Part shown: positions 9,537-61,346 of the stretch, piece after piece
Layout: every line of letters starts with the position of its first letter
Numbering within the stretch: the first letter of the stretch is position 1
Assembly (NCBI GenBank): GCA_964486045.1
Contig: CAZALK010000020.1
Location: 1-64,000, forward strand
Direction of reading: 5' to 3'
From: an uncultured archaeon
Lineage (GTDB): Archaea > Asgardarchaeota > Lokiarchaeia > Sigyniarchaeales > SOKP01
Length of the DNA: 64,000 bases
Notes under the pieces: generated by a model
What the model saw: only the letters and a program-made list of their open reading frames with translations
Databases searched by the model: none
What the model was told of the DNA's origin: nothing
Position numbers and translations under genes: made by a program

Positions 9537-9730
9537 CTATTCAGCTCCATCCCAGCAATATGTACACAGTCTTTCTTTTGGCAACCCTATAGCCTTAACC
9601 AAATCTTCTAGTTTCTGGTATTGTAAGGTTGTCAACTGCAACCTTTTACGTATTACTTCAACCATAGCTTTATAATTGTCAGACTCTAGATTAATATCTC
9701 CTGAAGGATCATCAATATCACTGTTTAAAT
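9537..9730 (-). pseudogene. 3' remnant of a PurF-like paralog
   Basis: Translates to ...ESDNYKAMVEVIRKRLQLTTLQYQKLEDLVKAIGLPKERLCTYCWDGAE*; no upstream domains. Confidence 0.8.
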
Positions 9731-9770
9731 TGAAGAAAGTAGGTAATGATAAAATAAGTTTAAAATTTAT

Positions 9771-10290
9771 TTAATCTTGCATAGTTGTTAATTCCTCGAA
9801 AGCTAATAATAATCCAATACCATCCCAACAATAAGTGCATAATTTCTCCTTAGGTAATCCAATCGCATTTACCAAATTCTCAAGCTTCTGGTATTTTAGG
9901 GTAGTTAGATTTAGTTTCTCTCTAATCACTTCAACCAAATCCTTATAATTTTCAGAATCAGGGTTAGTATATTCAATAGGGTTTTCTAAATCCTCCCCTA
10001 TCAAATCTTTAATCGCCCAACGTCCCGCTAAATCTAATTCTGAACGAGATCAGGAAAAATTAAGAAATTTGCACCCAAAAACAAGTGGAGGACAGGCGGG
10101 TCTCATGTGAACTTCTTTTGCTCCAAAGTCAAATAATCTCTCTATCCGTTTCCTAAGTTGGGTACCTCTAACAATAGAATCTTCACAAAATAGAAGGCGA
10201 TTATTATTAATGAGACCCTCAATTGGGATCAGTTTCATTTTAGCAACTTGGTCTCTTACAGATTGGATTTGAGGCATAAAACTCCTTACA
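9771..10290 (-). pseudogene. 5'-truncated PurF-like paralog remnant with an in-frame TGA
   Basis: RSFMPQ...EDSIVRGTQL...MRPACPP...CKFLNFS*SRSELDLAGR...LCTYCWDG. TGA at 10052-10050 where Arg (CGA) is expected. Confidence 0.82.
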
Positions 10291-46043: not shown

Positions 46044-47291
46044 ATGAAAACAAAGAAAGTATTTCTTTTTATGTTCTTATTTTTTTTTCCGGTATCAATT
46101 TCAGCTTATCCGAACTTACCGACACCATCAACAATGTTGGATAATTTTCCATTCACATCTTCCCCTGATTATGGTGTTTCTAATTATAATATTACCCAAA
46201 GTGTAAAATATAATATAGAAATCAACTTTACTTTAACTCACAAATCAGGTCCTGGTTCCTATTATTTTAAATTTGCACGATTAAATAACAGAATGCCAAA
46301 CTCAACAAAGTCTCAATATACTCCCCCTTATCAAGAGAGTAATCTTTTATATAATAATATAACAGGATACTCAGTGCTTAATATGGACCATAATGACCAA
46401 TTTAATAACACTTATGACTCTTTTAACGCAACATTACTACCCGAAGAAACAGTTACATTAAGTCAACACTATATCACTGAAGTAAATGCTATCAATTTTC
46501 TGGAAGTTGATATGGCAGATATTGAGGTCTATAATACGTCAGATGAAATATTCTCTTTATATTCTAACAATACAGAACTATATTATGAGCGAAACAATTC
46601 CGTTTTAGTTGATTTGTCTAATAACCTTGTAGATCCAGCTGATAATCCGATAGAAAAAGCGCAGAAGATTTTTAACTGGGTTATAAGCAACCTTGAATAT
46701 AATGGAGAGTTACCTGCTCAAGAAAAGGGAGCCCTTTGGGCTTATAATAATCTAAAGGGAGATTGTAGTGAATATTCGAGTTTGATGATTACATTATTAC
46801 GTATTCAAGGTATACCAGCTCGCAAAATAACCGGATTCTTAGTATCTAATAACCTCGCTTTGAGACCTCAAGCAGGTAATTCTTGGAACTTCTATGTCTC
46901 AGATTCAGGCGATAACATGTTAGGACATGCTTGGATTGAATATTATGTTCCTAATATTGGCTGGATTGCAAGTGATCCTACTTGGAAAACAGGTTATTTT
47001 AATAATATTGATTATCTTCGGTTCCATCTCAATGTAGGAGCGAACATCTTTTTTCCTCCTGATAGTACTGTGAGTGAGTTTGCTAATCCCATTTTTGCTT
47101 ATTCTGGAGGAGCAACCTTTACATTTAGTTATGACATTGATATAACCGTTATAGAGTCGAACCTGTTACCGTTGGAGCAATTCCCATTATTGTTTGCTAT
47201 ATTTATTGGGGTAGGGGCTGCCGCTGTGCTATTTACACTGATTATTATAATAAAAAGAAGTCGCAAGAAAGATTTTTTTGAATATGAATAA
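46044..47291 (+). CDS. Secreted, membrane-anchored transglutaminase-like protein
   Basis: Signal peptide, GDCSEYS, GIPAR, HAWIE, DPTW (Cys-His-Asp), C-terminal TM with basic tail. Confidence 0.9.
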   Translation: MKTKKVFLFMFLFFFPVSISAYPNLPTPSTMLDNFPFTSSPDYGVSNYNITQSVKYNIEINFTLTHKSGPGSYYFKFARLNNRMPNSTKSQYTPPYQESNLLYNNITGYSVLNMDHNDQFNNTYDSFNATLLPEETVTLSQHYITEVNAINFLEVDMADIEVYNTSDEIFSLYSNNTELYYERNNSVLVDLSNNLVDPADNPIEKAQKIFNWVISNLEYNGELPAQEKGALWAYNNLKGDCSEYSSLMITLLRIQGIPARKITGFLVSNNLALRPQAGNSWNFYVSDSGDNMLGHAWIEYYVPNIGWIASDPTWKTGYFNNIDYLRFHLNVGANIFFPPDSTVSEFANPIFAYSGGATFTFSYDIDITVIESNLLPLEQFPLLFAIFIGVGAAAVLFTLIIIIKRSRKKDFFEYE

Positions 47292-47323: not shown

Positions 47324-48790
47324 CTAAATATAAGTATGGATTAACTCCAGCAGATTTTTTGAGAAATCTGGTAAGTTTTTCTCTATTTTTTTAATTTCAA
47401 GAGATTTTTCAATAAACATTAGTAAATATAAGTTATATTTTTCAACTTGGATTTTTTTAAAAACAACTTTCTTAGAGTCGTCAGCAATTCCGGTGGATAC
47501 TAAAAAATCTTGTTTCAATACTTTGAATTCCTTAAAGGTTTTATACAAGGTTTGAAAGTGAGGTGCTGAGATTTCAAAAACCCTGTCAGATATCTCAGAT
47601 TTTGAAAAATTGGATAATATTATTCCATTTTCGTTAAGTAATAAAATTGCGTCTGAATTCGTTTTTCTTGCGAATTGCTTCAATTGATTTCTGAATAATT
47701 CTCGATTAGGACTTAACTGAGAAAGTCCATATGAATAAGCAGTAATAAGACTCCAATGGTCGAAAATACTAGTTTGGAATATTTTAGTTAAAAATCGATC
47801 AGATCTCTTTTCTACCTCATCAGCAATAATTTCTAAATTTTTAAATATTTCTTTTGAACCCTTCAGATCAGGATCGAATTTATTTAAACACACAACTATG
47901 GGCGGAAATTCATCTAATTCGACTAATATTTTCGAAATTCTTTGGAAAAGATTTAATGCTTCTTCAATTCTCTCTACATCTTGTATATCAATAAAGAAGA
48001 AAATTAGATCAACATTATATAAATAGACTTGACTTTGCTCAAGAAATCTTTCTAAATATTTTTTTTGGCCACCTATATCCCATAGAGAGATTAACGAGTT
48101 CTGTTCTTCAAATATATTCTCTTCTGTTCTTTCAACACCTTTAGTAGGTAATGATTTGATAATTTCTGAATATTTCTTTCTGATTCCATAAAGAAAACTT
48201 GATTTACCAGCCTTATCTAATCCTGTCAATAATATTTTAATTTGTCTTTTTGGAGAAAAAGGATCTTTTAATTCTTTTGTAAACTCGAATAGTTCTTCTC
48301 TAATATCATCCATTATTCGTTTCTGGTCATTAAATTCTTTTACATTCTGAATTTGTGTAGCTGTTTTATCGATTATAATCCTTAAATATTTCATATTTTC
48401 ATAAAAAAAAACCTTATCTTCTTCGTCAATTAATACAGTTATTGTCGCAGCTAGTGCTTGACCGCGTGCTTTTTCATCAGGGATAAGAAAAAAATAAGTT
48501 AAGCCATTCAATTTTAAATCAGGAAAAGGAAGAATTCCAAAGTAGTTAACTCCTATGTCTGATCCCTGAGAATTTTGATAAACTGAATCACCCATAAGCA
48601 AACTAATAGTTTTCATAGCTATTAGAAGTCCTGATTTCTCTTCTAGGTTAGAAGGCCATATTATTCTAGGTGTTGGGCCTTTTTCATCAAAAATACTTAA
48701 AACAACCGCTTTTATTAGATTGGATTTTTTGTCACCTGTATCGTTTCCTTTCATCTTCTTCTTATTCGAATTTGAGTCGGTTTTTGCCAA
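47324..48790 (-). CDS. uDENN/longin + Rag/Arf-like small GTPase + roadblock fusion protein
   Basis: LSIFDEKGP; FFLIPDEKARG; G1 GLDKAGKS, G2 PT, G3 WDIGGQ, G4 NKFD, G5 TSIFD; C-terminal AILLLNENGIILS. Confidence 0.85.
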   Translation of the reverse strand: MAKTDSNSNKKKMKGNDTGDKKSNLIKAVVLSIFDEKGPTPRIIWPSNLEEKSGLLIAMKTISLLMGDSVYQNSQGSDIGVNYFGILPFPDLKLNGLTYFFLIPDEKARGQALAATITVLIDEEDKVFFYENMKYLRIIIDKTATQIQNVKEFNDQKRIMDDIREELFEFTKELKDPFSPKRQIKILLTGLDKAGKSSFLYGIRKKYSEIIKSLPTKGVERTEENIFEEQNSLISLWDIGGQKKYLERFLEQSQVYLYNVDLIFFFIDIQDVERIEEALNLFQRISKILVELDEFPPIVVCLNKFDPDLKGSKEIFKNLEIIADEVEKRSDRFLTKIFQTSIFDHWSLITAYSYGLSQLSPNRELFRNQLKQFARKTNSDAILLLNENGIILSNFSKSEISDRVFEISAPHFQTLYKTFKEFKVLKQDFLVSTGIADDSKKVVFKKIQVEKYNLYLLMFIEKSLEIKKIEKNLPDFSKNLLELIHTYI

Positions 48791-48953: not shown

Positions 48954-50762
48954 TTATGAAAAAAATCCCAATCTTACTAGTTTAGACGGTAAAAAGATTC
49001 TATTTACAAAATCCTCTAGAGTTAGATTACTTTTTGTAAGTTCAGTTAAAGATATATATTCAATTGCACCATTTTGGATAAACTGGTGGTAAACCTCTTG
49101 ATTTTTAACTTTTTGTATTACATTAATTTCAGAATCTTCCCGAAAATGAGCAGTATTTGTATAATATGACATTTTTCCTTTGAATTGGGGAATCGCTACT
49201 CCTGGAAAATGTTTTAGATCTAATTTTGCAAATCTGGAGGGTGATTTTTCAGAGGTATTTTCACTTAATACATGGCGAATATTACTATTCTTAGATAGCT
49301 CTTTACAGACTTGATTCATCTCAATTAGGATTTTTTTGCCAAAAGTGAATACATCTGAACCTTCGTGCAGCTCGTAATCTGTTAAGAATTTAATAGCTTC
49401 GTTTAAACCAATAAAACTTATTGATAAGTATTGATTTTCTAAATTATAGAGATTCTGATTCTTAATATTAGTATTAAATAACGGCAAGTGATTTGACTGT
49501 AACCTTCTTCTTATGATATCATATTTTTTTAGTAAAATCCTAGAAGATAAATTCATTTTAGCTTTGAGTATCTCTAAGAAATCATCTTCATCCTTACTCA
49601 GATAAGCAAAGCGAGGAAGGTTCAAACAAACCTCTTGAAGCATCCCTTGGTTATCATAACTAGGATAAGAAATTTTTTTACCTTTTTCATCATTGAAAAG
49701 GTGAGCATTTGAATTTAATAAAATTGGAGTTCTCATTGTTAATGTTTCATCCCAGACTTTATGATAAGCATCACCATACTTATTTAACAGTGTTTCATTA
49801 ATATAAATTTCATGTTTGGGAGTATTAAATGGATTTTTATTATCATCACCTCCTTTAAAATTATAGGTAAAGGAGTTAAATATCTTCAGACAATCCTCAT
49901 AATAATCTTCATAACATCCCTCGATTTTTCCAAAGGGTCCAACTGCAGGGTATTTTAATAAATATTTAACAATAGTAGGGTGAGTCATAATAGTGGTTGG
50001 AGGAATTGTCCGACCGGTTATTACTGAAAAATAATTCATTTCATAAATGAAATTCCTTATTATATGATTTAAATCTTGTTCATTAGATTCTTTAACATAT
50101 GGTGCTAAGTAGATATTAATATTATTATATCCTTGACTTCCACAAATTTCATTTTGAGTTAATAATAACCATTTAATTAAATGATCGCAGGCTTCCCTTA
50201 AGTTTTTTGCTGGTTTAAGTTTGCAACAAGGAAGATTTTTATTTAGAGGTGGTAAGCCATTTTCTAAAACGATACTGGGATCCCAAATTTGAGTCAGTGG
50301 TTTTAAATCAAAATATCGCAACTTATGAATATGGATGTCTCCGTATAAATGAGCCTTGGATTCTTCATTGGTGAGAATTCTTAAATGAGCATATTCTTCA
50401 GAGATTCGATTTGAAGCCCAATTATGTATTTTCTCGGGGTTTATCACAATTTTTGGGTAATCAACCAAACCCTTTTCGAGAATTTCTTCATAATCCATTA
50501 ATGGCATTCCAATTCTAGTGTATAATTTACGTTCATTTTCAAAATGTTGTTCAGAAAGTATTGAGCATACAATTTCTCTTATATGCGGTCCAGAAAGAAA
50601 TTTGATGCCAGAACTAATGATCCTTCTTACTACAAGTTCAGTAATCCTCTTAGCTTTGTCTTCACTCAAGTTAGTCTCTTTAACAATGCTTTCAAAAATT
50701 ATCGGGGAGTTAAAATCTGTTAAATCCCCTTCAGTTCTGAAAACTTTTGGTAATAAATCCAT
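48954..50762 (-). CDS. ATP-cone + class III ribonucleotide reductase (NrdD)-like protein lacking catalytic motifs
   Basis: ATP cone (LSGPHIREIV), AHLYGDIHIH, LNLPRFA, IGLNEA, YYTNT-H. No C-terminal CxxC or RxxGY. Confidence 0.8.
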   Translation of the reverse strand: MDLLPKVFRTEGDLTDFNSPIIFESIVKETNLSEDKAKRITELVVRRIISSGIKFLSGPHIREIVCSILSEQHFENERKLYTRIGMPLMDYEEILEKGLVDYPKIVINPEKIHNWASNRISEEYAHLRILTNEESKAHLYGDIHIHKLRYFDLKPLTQIWDPSIVLENGLPPLNKNLPCCKLKPAKNLREACDHLIKWLLLTQNEICGSQGYNNINIYLAPYVKESNEQDLNHIIRNFIYEMNYFSVITGRTIPPTTIMTHPTIVKYLLKYPAVGPFGKIEGCYEDYYEDCLKIFNSFTYNFKGGDDNKNPFNTPKHEIYINETLLNKYGDAYHKVWDETLTMRTPILLNSNAHLFNDEKGKKISYPSYDNQGMLQEVCLNLPRFAYLSKDEDDFLEILKAKMNLSSRILLKKYDIIRRRLQSNHLPLFNTNIKNQNLYNLENQYLSISFIGLNEAIKFLTDYELHEGSDVFTFGKKILIEMNQVCKELSKNSNIRHVLSENTSEKSPSRFAKLDLKHFPGVAIPQFKGKMSYYTNTAHFREDSEINVIQKVKNQEVYHQFIQNGAIEYISLTELTKSNLTLEDFVNRIFLPSKLVRLGFFS

Positions 50763-51852: not shown

Positions 51853-52938
51853 TTATTTTTTTAATCCTAAATAATGTTTTACTTGTTTTTTTATAAGATT
51901 CATAGCAATAGAAATAATACCACTCTTAACTTGAGGATGTGAAAACAGTATTAAAATCATATCTTTAAGACTCGAAGTTTCTAGATCAAGAAATGCCATA
52001 TCTAAAACTCCCTCAGTACCTCTCACTGATATCGATCTTAAAGCTCCAGCACTTAAACCATCGATGATATCCGCACTTATCATTGAAAGATTTATCCCTA
52101 TTGTACCAAATAAGGATTCCGATATTCTACTTGAAATAGCTGACGCTAACATTGTCCCATCTGTTTTTATGATTGCTGATGCCTCAATTTTTGAATCTAA
52201 AGTTATCAATTCTTTTAATATCTCATTCATCGAAGCTGGTGGTAATTTATTTTTTGGTTCTTTCTGAGAAGTTGATTTAGGTTCTTTTAGTTTTATTTTA
52301 TTTACGATAATTTTCTTTGATAGAAAACCAAGAACCTCCGACATGTCTTTCTCTAGTTTCTTCTGTTTTATAATAGCAAGATCTGAGTCTACAGTTTTAA
52401 GGGGGAGCGGAGTTGTAGATGGTTTAGGTTTCTTAATTTCAACTTCGAGAACAGATTTTTTAAGTTCTTTTAGTGCATCTGAGATAACTCCATTAGATTT
52501 AGGGATGAGAGAAATGAATTCTTTTTTGTCTGAGAGAATAGTACCTTTAAATGGTTTCGGGGTTATTTCTTGTAATATTGGGGGGGTTTTTTCTTCTAAA
52601 TTGTGTTTCGTTTCTAGAGGTATTTCTGTAAGGGAATCCGATTCAATTTCTTCATTATCTTCTATTGGAATATCACCAAGCTTTGAAAAATCACTTAGTT
52701 TCTCTTCTTCTATCGGTATCTCATGTAATTCTAATTCTTCTGGTTCTAGATCTTCCGGTACTTTAGGTTCTTCTATTATTTGAGTAATAGGAACTTTTTT
52801 TGCTTTTTCTTCTTTAACGGTTTTAGGTTTTTTAGGTCTAGAGGTTCTAGTAGAAATTGGTAGTAATGCCCCACATGTTCTACAGATACGAGTTTTTTTC
52901 TCATTATTTGTTGTCCCACAGTTATTACAAATTATTAT
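51853..52938 (-). CDS. Zinc ribbon + Pro/Glu/Lys-rich linker + roadblock/LC7 domain, 361 aa, probable ATA start
   Basis: Frame is open from ATA 52938 (IIICNNCGTTN...ICRTCGALL) to the called ATG at 52344. Roadblock IEASAIIKTDGTMLAS...ISVRGTEG. GGGGGAG upstream. Confidence 0.82.
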   Translation of the reverse strand: MIICNNCGTTNNEKKTRICRTCGALLPISTRTSRPKKPKTVKEEKAKKVPITQIIEEPKVPEDLEPEELELHEIPIEEEKLSDFSKLGDIPIEDNEEIESDSLTEIPLETKHNLEEKTPPILQEITPKPFKGTILSDKKEFISLIPKSNGVISDALKELKKSVLEVEIKKPKPSTTPLPLKTVDSDLAIIKQKKLEKDMSEVLGFLSKKIIVNKIKLKEPKSTSQKEPKNKLPPASMNEILKELITLDSKIEASAIIKTDGTMLASAISSRISESLFGTIGINLSMISADIIDGLSAGALRSISVRGTEGVLDMAFLDLETSSLKDMILILFSHPQVKSGIISIAMNLIKKQVKHYLGLKK

Positions 52939-53174: not shown

Positions 53175-54149
53175 TTATTTATAGAGGATCTCTTTCAATA
53201 TTTTTGCGAAAGCTTCAAAGTCTTCTTTGTTAAAAACAGGATTATCTTTTAATAGAAGTAAGTAATAGGGTGTGGACTCTTTTCGTAACGAAATCTGTTT
53301 AAACATGAAATTTTTCCCATATCTTTGTACAATCATTCTTTCCTCGTACTTTTTCTCCAAAACGCTTGTGGATTGAAAGGAATCATGAAGAGTGAGAAAA
53401 TATGGGGTTGAAGCGGTGAGTAGGTGCCGAGTCTCATCATCCTTATAATAAGATCCAATTATTAGTGAATTGTCGTCAATTACTACTACCCCACCGGAAT
53501 CTACCTTTTTAGCAAATTCTACAATTGTTTTTTCAATTAATTCAGATTTTGGATAGAGACTTAAAAGGATTTCAGACATGGCTGCTATTATTGATGAGAA
53601 TTCATAAATGGAGGTTTCATAGAAATAAATTTCCTTATAATCTGTAGCGTTTCTTATTAGTTCCTTTAAATCTATTATAAGATTTTCCATTTCATTTAAG
53701 GCACCCCTCTTTAAAGCAGGATCATATTTATGAAGGAAAACATAGATTGGTGGTTCAATTTCCAATTTGTTAAACTGCTCAATAACATCTTTAAAATAAC
53801 TTATTGCTTCAGGTATTCGCGGTTTATTCTGGATATCAATAACATAGATGGCAATTTCAGTTCCATCAAAGTATTTATTTGGCTTTTTTAAATAGGAGAT
53901 CCTATAGCTAACCTGCCCGCCTAAATCCCATTCACTTATCTCTTTTCCTAGAAAATCGAATATTCTCCTTTGCGCTCCTCTCGTAGGAGATAATACAGCA
54001 ATTTTTGAGAATTCTCTTTGGAGAGATAAAATTATGCTTGTCTTGCCTGCATCATCTAGCCCCGTAAATAAAATCTTTGAAGATTCGGGTTCAGCTTCTA
54101 GATCATCTTTTTTTAAATACAAGATTGATTGTTTAAGATTTTTCTCCAT
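53175..54149 (-). CDS. Rag (Gtr1/RagA)-like small GTPase with C-terminal roadblock domain
   Basis: GLDDAGKT, PTRG, WDLGGQ, HKYD, TSIYE; C-terminal VVVIDDNSLIIGSY. Confidence 0.88.
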   Translation of the reverse strand: MEKNLKQSILYLKKDDLEAEPESSKILFTGLDDAGKTSIILSLQREFSKIAVLSPTRGAQRRIFDFLGKEISEWDLGGQVSYRISYLKKPNKYFDGTEIAIYVIDIQNKPRIPEAISYFKDVIEQFNKLEIEPPIYVFLHKYDPALKRGALNEMENLIIDLKELIRNATDYKEIYFYETSIYEFSSIIAAMSEILLSLYPKSELIEKTIVEFAKKVDSGGVVVIDDNSLIIGSYYKDDETRHLLTASTPYFLTLHDSFQSTSVLEKKYEERMIVQRYGKNFMFKQISLRKESTPYYLLLLKDNPVFNKEDFEAFAKILKEILYK

Positions 54150-59846: not shown

Positions 59847-61346
59847 ATGGAAAGATTATTTGAATCTTCGCTAATTAAAGGATTTATATTTAGTGCCTAC
59901 GGGGAACTAGGACCACAACCCGTTTATACATGGCCTAATTATTATACCGAAAAAGAAATAAAACAAATTAAAACTGAAGAAAAGAAATCTCTAATTTTAT
60001 CATTAAGGGATGTCACTCAAATCTCAATAAAGAATCTCAGCTTATTTATAAGTGACAGAGAATTCTCACAAGAAAAAGACTTCCAAAATCTAAGATATTT
60101 CGCTATTTTACCCTATCCTGATTTTAAAGCAACATCTCTCACTTATTTTCATTATATTGAAAATGGTACTTTTGACCTACCTGTCGCCACCGCATTTTCA
60201 ATATTAGTTGAGGAATATAGAAGAAGTTTCTTATACAATAATATAAACAGAATTAAACCGATAGTATCTGAATTCTTTACTCGGTTTGATCAAAAATTAC
60301 TTGAGAATTATCCTCCTAAAGAAGAAATAGAAGAATTTTTTATTGAGTTGTTTAAACAGCTTAATGAGATTGAAAAAAATCCATCAACCCCGATCACCTC
60401 TCACCGAAAATTAAAACTTATTTTTGCAGGTTTAGATGATTCTGGTAAAACCAGCTTCCTTTTAAGTGTTGATCGTAAATATAGTAAACTTATTGGGTTA
60501 AAACCAACTACAGGAGCGAGTATCAAATCAATTGAAGCTCTAGGTGCTACAATCTTTTTGTGGGACTTAGGTGGCCAGTTGAAATTTCGAAGAAAGTATA
60601 TAGATAAGGCTGAGATTTACTTATATGAAGCTGATTTAATTTTCTATTTTATTGACGTAAGAAATGAAAGTAGATTTGAAGAAAGCATAGAATATCTTCT
60701 TAGCATAAAAAAAGTATTAGGAGATTTTAAACAAAATACTCCAATTGTCTACATATTATCAAAAGGAGATTCTGATATTATAAATACAGGAGAAATCAAA
60801 AATAATATTGAAAATGTGAAGAAAAAACTATTTGAAATTACTCCTAAAGAATCCCCTGAATTATATGTCACCAGTATCTTTCAAATTTTTACAATTCTAA
60901 GGGCATTTTCTTCTGGAATTTCAAAATTAAGCCCTAATAGAAATTTAATAAATCATAACCTTAGAAATTTCTCTCTTAAAACAAAGGCTTTTTTAACATT
61001 ACTCTTAAGTGAAGATGGTTTAGTTTTAGCAGACTTCTATTCCTCAAAAGCAAAGAAACTAACAAAGATTCCCAAATCTGAGGAACTCATAAATGTTTTT
61101 GAGGTAACTGCACCTCAATTTGCCATGCTATTTAAAATCTTCTCAAGATTCAAAGCTTTAAAAGAAGAAGAAGCGATATTTAAAGTGTCTGATTCTGTAA
61201 TCCTTTTTAAAAGGATCAAAGTTGTTGAGGAAAACATGTTCATTCTATTTCTGGTTGATAATGAGAAAAGAAAGGAAAAAATCAACATTAAATTGCCCGT
61301 TTTCTTAGAGCAAACAAAAGAGTTATTGTTAAGATATATTGCATAA
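59847..61346 (+). CDS. uDENN/longin + Rag/Arf-like GTPase + roadblock fusion, paralog of 47324-48790
   Basis: FSAYGELGPQP, YFAILPYPD; GLDDSGKT, PTTG, WDLGGQ, SKGD, TSIF; LSPNR; LLLSEDGLVLA, FEVTAP. Confidence 0.85.
   Translation: MERLFESSLIKGFIFSAYGELGPQPVYTWPNYYTEKEIKQIKTEEKKSLILSLRDVTQISIKNLSLFISDREFSQEKDFQNLRYFAILPYPDFKATSLTYFHYIENGTFDLPVATAFSILVEEYRRSFLYNNINRIKPIVSEFFTRFDQKLLENYPPKEEIEEFFIELFKQLNEIEKNPSTPITSHRKLKLIFAGLDDSGKTSFLLSVDRKYSKLIGLKPTTGASIKSIEALGATIFLWDLGGQLKFRRKYIDKAEIYLYEADLIFYFIDVRNESRFEESIEYLLSIKKVLGDFKQNTPIVYILSKGDSDIINTGEIKNNIENVKKKLFEITPKESPELYVTSIFQIFTILRAFSSGISKLSPNRNLINHNLRNFSLKTKAFLTLLLSEDGLVLADFYSSKAKKLTKIPKSEELINVFEVTAPQFAMLFKIFSRFKALKEEEAIFKVSDSVILFKRIKVVEENMFILFLVDNEKRKEKINIKLPVFLEQTKELLLRYIA

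Follow-up and report, generated by a model that had tools for sequence, protein, structure and literature searches.

A Lokiarchaeial Rag-like GTPase fused to a longin domain of the folliculin class with a candidate arginine finger

In a 64,000-nucleotide stretch of DNA from an uncultured archaeon of the class Lokiarchaeia (order Sigyniarchaeales; GenBank assembly GCA_964486045.1, contig CAZALK010000020.1, positions 1–64,000; the window), gene P0001 (47324..48790, minus strand) encodes a 488-residue protein that carries a longin domain, a Rag-like GTPase domain and a roadblock domain in a single chain. The longin domain bears a conserved Gly-Pro (GP) turn and a candidate arginine-finger loop, reminiscent of the longin domain of folliculin (FLCN), a GTPase-activating protein (GAP) for RagC/D. 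On balance, we favor the view that this domain is a built-in GAP module acting on the Rag-like G domain. An initial annotation, made from the sequence alone, had described the gene as a fusion of an FLCN-type GAP with a Rag-type substrate and had taken it as a sign that their pairing upstream of TORC1 predates eukaryotes. The observation is confirmed by our analysis and the interpretation is partly supported, while the evolutionary claim has to be narrowed.

According to the list of open reading frames (ORFs) and their translations, the gene comprises 488 open codons beginning with TTG, with an in-frame ATG at codon 13. The window has a G+C content of about 30% and belongs to a genome that is 99% complete with 7.8% contamination. 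The nearest relatives of the protein stem from Asgard metagenome-assembled genomes labeled Promethearchaeota or Lokiarchaeota, and an orthologue is present in 30 of 31 related genomes. A full-length AlphaFold2 (AF2) model (predicted local distance difference test [pLDDT] 74.8; predicted template modeling score [pTM] 0.73) is organized in three domains, and the linker between the longin and G domains measures about nine residues (173–181). The Lys-rich N-terminal tail, AKTDSNSNKKKMKGNDTGDKKS (residues 1–22; 48725..48790, minus strand), is predicted to be disordered (pLDDT of about 31 in the full-length model). This tail may be a polybasic element for membrane or nucleic acid binding, or it may not be translated, should the protein actually begin at the ATG of codon 13.

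The central and C-terminal parts of the protein constitute a Rag/Gtr-family small GTPase, in which the G domain (residues 182–357; 47720..48247, minus strand) is contiguous with a C-terminal roadblock domain (residues 363–487; 47330..47704, minus strand). The set of GTPase motifs is complete, with G1 (GLDKAGKS, residues 190–197; 48200–48223), G3 (DIGGQ, residues 238–242; 48065–48079) and G4 (NKFD, residues 303–306; 47873–47884), all on the minus strand, and TSI as G5. Pfam Gtr1_RagA matches residues 185–399 (E 5.4e-25; 88.6 bits versus a cut-off of 22), covering positions 1–216 of the 232 positions of the hidden Markov model (HMM), and a search against Protein Data Bank (PDB) sequences retrieved the Lokiarchaeal RagA-like GTPase LokiRagO (8YL2; E 2.9e-32). 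In the AF2 model, the roadblock domain follows the order α-β-β-α-β-β-β-α. Foldseek aligned the G domain together with the roadblock domain over about 305–310 columns, with target-normalized template modeling (TM) scores of 0.72–0.76, to LokiRagO (8YL2; E 2.5e-23), human RagA (E 1.4e-18), Gtr1 and RagC, while Arf and Arl proteins matched the G domain part only. The complete GTPase and the roadblock-like tail of the initial annotation thus both hold.

The N-terminal domain (residues 26–172; 48275..48715, minus strand) adopts a longin fold, as had been proposed. Its separate AF2 model, built with 82 aligned homologues, reached a pLDDT of 93.6 and shows the longin order β-β-α-β-β-β-α-α, with strands (in the numbering of the domain model) at residues 6–15, 18–25, 63–69, 74–84 and 92–102 and helices at residues 31–46, 103–128 and 133–154. 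In structure comparisons, this domain scored highest against the Asgard longin 8YQG (18.5), followed by Lst4, the FNIP orthologue (13.2), FLCN (12.7), C9orf72 (12.6), NPRL2 (11.5), DENND1A and FNIP2 (10.8 each), SMCR8 (10.4) and 8adl_S (10.3), a chain of the SEA complex which we take to be Npr2 or Npr3. TRAPP, AP, VAMP7, Ykt6, Sec22 and roadblock domains all remained at or below 9.5. The domain is therefore structurally nearer to the longins of GAP complexes than to SNARE, adaptor, TRAPP or roadblock domains, with a gap of 3–4 Z units over other longins. Searches of the ESM Atlas, scored by query-normalized TM, gave a consistent picture, with 0.81 for a Heimdallarchaeota cluster in which 23% of the members carry Pfam Folliculin, 0.77 for fungal proteins annotated as "UDENN FLCN/SMCR8-type", 0.76 for C9orf72 and 0.75 for SMCR8. 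In a feature search of the same resource, no lead reached 0.9; all pointed to Asgard clusters, including one in which 19% of the members carry NPR2. Taken together with the motifs described below, the modeled structure lends good support to the assignment of the N-terminal domain to the GAP-longin/uDENN class that includes folliculin, SMCR8, NPRL2 and C9orf72.

Sequence evidence for the folliculin class is weaker and points in the same direction. Pfam Folliculin (PF11704) matched residues 97–158 of the protein (HMM positions 49–108; E 0.0017) with 18.6–19.7 bits, below the gathering threshold of 23.3. A HMMER search with the N-terminal domain yielded 121 cluster representatives, 82 of which cover the domain at a mean pairwise identity of about 26%; among these 82, Folliculin was the sole Pfam family matched repeatedly (25 of 82, best E 9.5e-7). 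In addition, homologues from other Asgard classes, which the family profile retrieves with E-values of 1e-13 to 1e-25, score 25.2–28.7 bits and hence lie above the Folliculin threshold, so that family-level homology of the 488-residue protein to Folliculin is supported only transitively, via these other-class homologues. Profiles of the longin family, comprising either the whole domain or the half with the arginine loop, retrieved only the Asgard longin 8YQG from PDB sequences; even with E-values up to 10, they gave no match to FLCN, SMCR8, NPRL2 or C9orf72.

These searches raise the question of whether the likeness to folliculin is convergent, or generic to longins, such that the GP and Arg motifs would have no common origin with those of eukaryotic GAP longins. 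The low identity of the domain to FLCN, 14–16%, would fit such an origin, as would the sub-threshold Pfam match and the failure of the profiles to reach eukaryotic proteins among PDB sequences. However, convergence would have had to place two separate motifs in the same two loops, and it does not sit well with the structural gap over other longins, with Folliculin being the only recurrent Pfam family, with intermediate Asgard homologues that exceed its threshold or with Atlas clusters annotated as FLCN, SMCR8 or C9orf72 at TM scores of 0.75–0.81. We therefore consider a convergent or generic origin very unlikely.

The two motifs occupy the positions that had been assigned to them from the sequence. 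LSIFDEKGPTP spans residues 31–41 and includes the F-D-x-x-G-P motif FDEKGP (residues 34–39; 48674..48691, minus strand), which lies at the β1–β2 turn and the start of β2, with G38-P39 opening the second strand of the longin model. TYFFLIPDEKARGQALAATITVL spans residues 98–120 and includes the candidate arginine-finger loop DEKARG (residues 105–110; 48461..48478, minus strand) between β4 and β5; Arg109 is encoded by the minus-strand codon CGC at 48466–48464 and is situated in the loop between the strands formed by residues 94–104 and 112–122. Arg109 also lies within residues 97–158, the only part of the protein that Pfam Folliculin covers. In GAP longins, the GP motif has been located at the end of the β1–β2 loop or the start of β2, which is matched by G38-P39, and it "spatially neighbors the arginine finger" (PMC12290439). 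In the present model, the β1–β2 and β4–β5 turns would likewise share an edge of the sheet, since strands 1 and 5 are antiparallel neighbors in the longin topology.

Both motifs are conserved in the family beyond chance, as judged from the alignment of the 82 representatives. G38 is kept in all 82 and ranks first among 155 columns, P39 ranks second (78 of 82; 95%), R109 sixth (69 of 82; 84%) and G110 eleventh (64 of 82). Conservation of Arg109 among orthologues, on which the initial annotation had staked its reading, is also found at closer range, with Arg-Gly kept in 119 of 120 close orthologues (74–99% identity); in the single exception, 20 residues spanning the loop are deleted. K60 (77 of 82; 48611–48613), located in helix 1 (AMKTISLL), P46 (74 of 82; 48653–48655) and P88 (76 of 82; 48527–48529) are also nearly invariant in the longin family.

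Conservation of the arginine could also have reasons other than catalysis. The longin domain might be a non-catalytic platform that serves dimerization, GEF-like (guanine nucleotide exchange factor) activity or effector binding, as in DENN proteins, Mon1-Ccz1, TRAPP, Ragulator and MglB, with the Arg-Gly pair having a structural role or binding something other than the γ-phosphate. Longins without a finger, namely the Rab GEF DENND1 and Lst4/FNIP, score level with FLCN in our comparisons, and longin and roadblock regulators mostly function as GEFs or platforms (PMC10933270). Moreover, 13 of the 82 homologues lack the arginine, as does 8YQG, a dimeric longin, indicating that the longin fold also has non-catalytic roles, and 38 of the 82 have no G domain after the longin. 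On the other hand, the GP motif, which is the most conserved feature of the present family, has been described as specific to GAP longins and as missing from DENND, TRAPP and adaptin longins (PMC12290439). R109, sixth of 155 columns, is placed in a loop at the surface, a setting less expected for a residue that is purely structural. A platform function is thus possible but, in our assessment, rather unlikely.

Based on these observations, we suggest how the longin domain might act as a GAP. The GP loop (β1–β2) and the Arg109 loop (β4–β5) would form the catalytic edge or pocket of the module, which would dock on a Rag-like G domain in its GTP-bound state. Docked in this way, the module would insert Arg109 into the nucleotide site, where this residue would complement Q242, the glutamine of G3, as Arg164 of FLCN does for RagC; FLCN Arg164 is a proven arginine finger (PMC9473554), and the combination of GP motif and arginine finger is a signature of GAP longins, both elements of which have been reported in Asgard longins (PMC12290439). 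Action in trans appears more likely than action on the own G domain, because the linker is so short and because Rag-type proteins pair via their roadblock domains. Such action could take place in a roadblock-mediated homo-oligomer, or in a hetero-oligomer with an Arg-less paralogue or a plain Rag-like protein encoded nearby (see below). Prediction of a complex between the longin domain and the G plus roadblock domains (residues 176–488) with GTP and Mg gave interaction prediction scores from aligned errors (ipSAE) of 0.39, 0.21 and 0.29; with a median of 0.29, a mark of 0.32 and no controls, we count this result neither for nor against binding. The output of the proposed switch would not be TORC1, as had been suggested initially, since a TOR-type kinase is undetected: no match to PI3_PI4_kinase (PF00454), and hence no PI3K/PIKK kinase domain, was found at E ≤0.01 in the 99%-complete genome. 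The link to TORC1 is thus not transferable to this organism.

Several points weigh against a GAP function of this kind. GEF or platform functions are more common among longin and DENN domains, and in eukaryotes GAP longins work as heterodimers and carry a DENN domain. The 488-residue protein has no such domain after its longin, where the G domain and roadblock domain stand instead. The proposed correspondence of Arg109 to FLCN Arg164 and SMCR8 Arg147 is based on loop position and the local Pfam match. The FLCN loop reads FFIKDSLARGF, and with the Pfam model beginning near FLCN residue 104, Arg109 would fall on Arg164, a consideration that we do not count as evidence. The short linker may block reach in cis, as judged from the model. 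To these points come the sub-threshold Folliculin score, the profile searches that did not extend to eukaryotic GAP longins, and the homologues and the solved Asgard relative that lack the arginine. GAP function is a prediction from sequence and models.

The GTPase to which longins of this type are joined is not always Rag-like. Among the 82 representatives, 44 have a P-loop GTPase after the longin domain, 13 of them with a long Rag-type tail and 31 with a G domain only, although some of the latter are fragments. The spacing from the arginine to the P-loop is nearly constant across architectures, at about 80–105 residues. A class of longin-GTPase proteins of about 345 residues shows DxAGQ and NKxD motifs and is Ras-family in the source genome, in which two 350-residue proteins combine a GP/Arg longin with a Ras-family GTPase (contig C20, 70424–71476 and 72792–73841; L005:6424–7476 and 8792–9841; Pfam Ras E 3e-45 and 6e-48). 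Both of these genes sit just beyond the window, and the N-termini of their products read F/L-D-E-x-L-G-P, with the spacing of the C9orf72 motif W-D-x-x-x-G-P. Between them, two adjacent ORFs of 138 and 126 residues (L005:7656–8072 and 8109–8489; about 71656–72489 on C20) encode the two parts of a TatD-type DNase; they match Pfam positions 1–111 and 131–253 and represent a broken gene or an assembly error. Other architectures in the longin family include roadblock-longin proteins, longins with a winged helix, tandem longins, very large proteins and longins without a partner domain.

These fusions also bear on the identity of the substrate. The longin domain might be a GAP for a separate GTPase, Ras-like or Arf-related, with the fused Rag-like part being a regulated scaffold that positions or gates it. 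The fusion of the same longin type to Ras-family GTPases would be in line with such an arrangement, as would the short linker, which speaks against action in cis, and the fact that C9orf72-SMCR8 targets Arf and Rab proteins (PMC12290439). Yet the longin domain is located directly N-terminal to the G domain, with nearly constant spacing and in many independent-looking architectures, for which mutual action is the simplest reading. We thus regard a separate substrate as distinctly unlikely, and retain the Rag-like G domain as the favored target of the predicted GAP module.

Of the 301 genomes sampled from the phylum, 163 contain GP/Arg longins detected by the family profile, distributed over many families. 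A query with the single protein retrieves close relatives almost exclusively from the same order and class. Five genomes of other Asgard classes contain GP/Arg longin matches of 160–420 residues and some giant proteins, with GP and ...ARGG kept, and no P-loop was found after the longin in these matches. In a genome of another Asgard class, three tandem genes for proteins of about 372–375 residues (G067:C1:639114–642263; L012, L014 and L020) encode GP/ARG longins above the Pfam Folliculin threshold, whose C-terminal halves match no Pfam family; a short copy of 154–166 residues is present as well. Within the genomes sampled, the longin-GTPase fusion therefore looks specific to the Lokiarchaeia-type lineage. 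Being seen only in this Asgard class, the fusion constitutes functional (Rosetta-stone) evidence and not evidence of an ancestral state. Because the same GP/Arg longin is also fused to Ras-family GTPases or stands without any GTPase, the predicted pairing is not confined to Rags, and the Rosetta-stone signal is one of a GAP-type longin with small GTPases of the Rag and Ras types and not of a private FLCN-Rag pairing. Of the original Rosetta-stone proposal, the fusion of a GAP-class longin to a Rag/Gtr-type GTPase stands and its Rag specificity does not; of the proposal that the pairing predates eukaryotes, a functional link between GAP-type longins and small GTPases in Asgard archaea stands, whereas the lineage-specific fusion cannot serve as evidence of what was ancestral. 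In eukaryotes, the same longin class serves both Rag proteins (FLCN, GATOR1) and Arf/Rab proteins (C9orf72-SMCR8), which fits the coexistence of Rag- and Ras-type fusions here.

The source genome encodes seven proteins of this longin type, four of them within 26 kb on contig C20. One is a 499-residue paralogue with the same three-domain longin/Rag-like/roadblock architecture (59847..61346, plus strand; A1 profile E 2e-27; Pfam Gtr1_RagA E 2.5e-18), located 11 kb from the Arg-bearing gene. It keeps the GP motif (YGELGP) and has an atypical G4 motif, SKGD instead of NKxD. Its counterpart of the arginine loop, IENGTF-D, is two residues shorter and contains no basic residue. The corresponding loop in a relative from another family reads VRKRF, so that "Arg-less" applies to the canonical ARG motif and not to every basic residue; representatives of the paralogue class have Q, K, A or P at the Arg position. 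Between the two longin-Rag genes, the window also encodes a roadblock protein (51853–52344) and a plain Rag-like GTPase with a roadblock domain, of LokiRagO type (324 residues; 53175..54149, minus strand; Pfam Gtr1_RagA E 2.1e-24). The Arg-bearing gene, the plain Rag and the Arg-less gene lie together within about 10–15 kb in essentially all genomes of the genus, and they follow the same order within 7 kb in a genome of another family, where the orthologue is 42% identical. From this gene order, the 499-residue paralogue and the plain Rag are candidate partners of the 488-residue protein, and the plain Rag is also a candidate substrate.

Two longin proteins of which only one has a finger are reminiscent of FLCN/FNIP, NPRL2/NPRL3 and SMCR8/C9orf72, and the presence of two Rag-like chains brings RagA/RagC to mind. 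One might therefore imagine a heterodimer of the 488- and 499-residue proteins, which the plain Rag and the roadblock protein could join and in which a single finger would hydrolyze GTP on only one of two G domains. Such an assembly would be an archaeal counterpart of RagA/RagC and of FLCN/FNIP (or NPRL2/NPRL3 or SMCR8/C9orf72) at once, and the Rag and longin-GAP systems of eukaryotes could have arisen from the splitting of such switches. We regard this scenario as speculative and unlikely.

Further features of the neighborhood are noted for completeness. A gene for a transglutaminase-like protein with a signal peptide and a C-terminal anchor (46044–47291, plus strand) lies tail-to-tail with the Arg-bearing gene, an arrangement that recurs in the other-family genome (L023:561–1850 with 1853–3268). 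Besides the plain Rag, the conserved 10-kb neighborhood encodes LOG-like and AIR-synthase-like proteins, a protein of 275–285 residues and, downstream, a membrane protein. We rejected an operon reading of this region, as the three Rag-like genes lie on both strands with unrelated housekeeping genes between them. An NrdD-like protein of 602 residues (48954–50762, minus strand), whose match to the model of anaerobic ribonucleotide reductase ends at position 494 of 562 (E 4.8e-72), is encoded next to the Arg-bearing gene and is not present at the syntenic locus of the other family (L023). Elsewhere in the genome, a 240-residue ORF (C14:132221–132943, minus strand; L006:2222–2944) shares 82% identity over its first 177 residues with the longin domain of the 488-residue protein, including the loop LILGEEARG. 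It ends in a unique 60-residue tail with a CxxC motif, no remnant of a G domain was found downstream of it, and among 31 relatives it occurs in this genome only; it could stem from a recent partial duplication or, in view of the 7.8% contamination, be foreign.

Comparison with known systems underscores both the likeness and the differences. FLCN, which acts with FNIP2 as a GAP for RagC/D (PDB 8DHB, 6NZD, 6ULG), forms a polypeptide of its own, ends in a DENN domain and pairs with FNIP in a heterodimer that works at the lysosome and lies upstream of TORC1/TFEB, whereas the 488-residue protein has its longin fused to a GTPase, no DENN domain, a sub-threshold Folliculin score and a genome with no TOR-type kinase detected. 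C9orf72-SMCR8 and GATOR1 (NPRL2-NPRL3) are likewise heterodimers built from separate proteins, with free Arf/Rab or RagA/B as their targets, and a pairing of the archaeal paralogues would be their hypothetical equivalent. Eukaryotic RagA/B-RagC/D and yeast Gtr1-Gtr2 share the G domain and C-terminal roadblock domain with the 488-residue protein, but eukaryotic Rags have no N-terminal longin and are obligate heterodimers that are tethered by Ragulator and signal to TORC1. Among solved Asgard structures, LokiRagO (8YL2) comes without a longin domain and the Lokiarchaeal Roadblock-Longin protein (8YQG) without the arginine; crystal structures of LokiRagM are also available (8ZLA/9M28). In the literature library searched, we found no paper describing the LokiRagO, LokiRagM or Roadblock-Longin structures.

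Parts of the present picture have been published before. Longin-GTPase fusions in Lokiarchaeum were noted in 2016 by Klinger et al., according to the summary given in PMC4917890, and the longin-Rag-roadblock architecture was described by Tran in 2024 (PMC10933270), where the longin is not classed as folliculin-type, the arginine finger is not noted and folliculin is named once, in the introduction. Both a GP motif and an arginine finger in Asgard "Folliculin/SMCR8-type" longins were reported in 2025 (Traffic; PMC12290439), and these longins carry the same two motifs in the same structural places as the 488-residue protein. That report does not mention a GTPase fusion in its text and poses as an open question which archaeal GTPases are the partners, Arf-related or Rag; here, the candidate partner resides in the same polypeptide. 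Joining the published architecture with the published GP/Arg longins appears to be new, as we found no paper linking both.

At the lysosome, Rag and Arf GTPases are under the control of longin GAP complexes (folliculin, GATOR1 and C9orf72-SMCR8), which are linked to Birt-Hogg-Dubé syndrome, epilepsy and amyotrophic lateral sclerosis/frontotemporal dementia (ALS/FTD). The question of the archaeal partner GTPases (PMC12290439) is given a genomic answer by the present analysis, in that the GTPases to which GP/Arg longins are fused in this Asgard class belong to the Rag/Gtr type and, in sister proteins, to the Ras type. This association supports a functional link of GAP-type longins with small GTPases that is pre-eukaryotic, and it supports neither a Rag-only pairing nor a link to TORC1. 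With solved relatives at hand (8YL2, 8YQG), the 488-residue protein would offer a compact single-chain system in which the mechanism of the arginine finger and of the GP motif could be addressed by point mutation.

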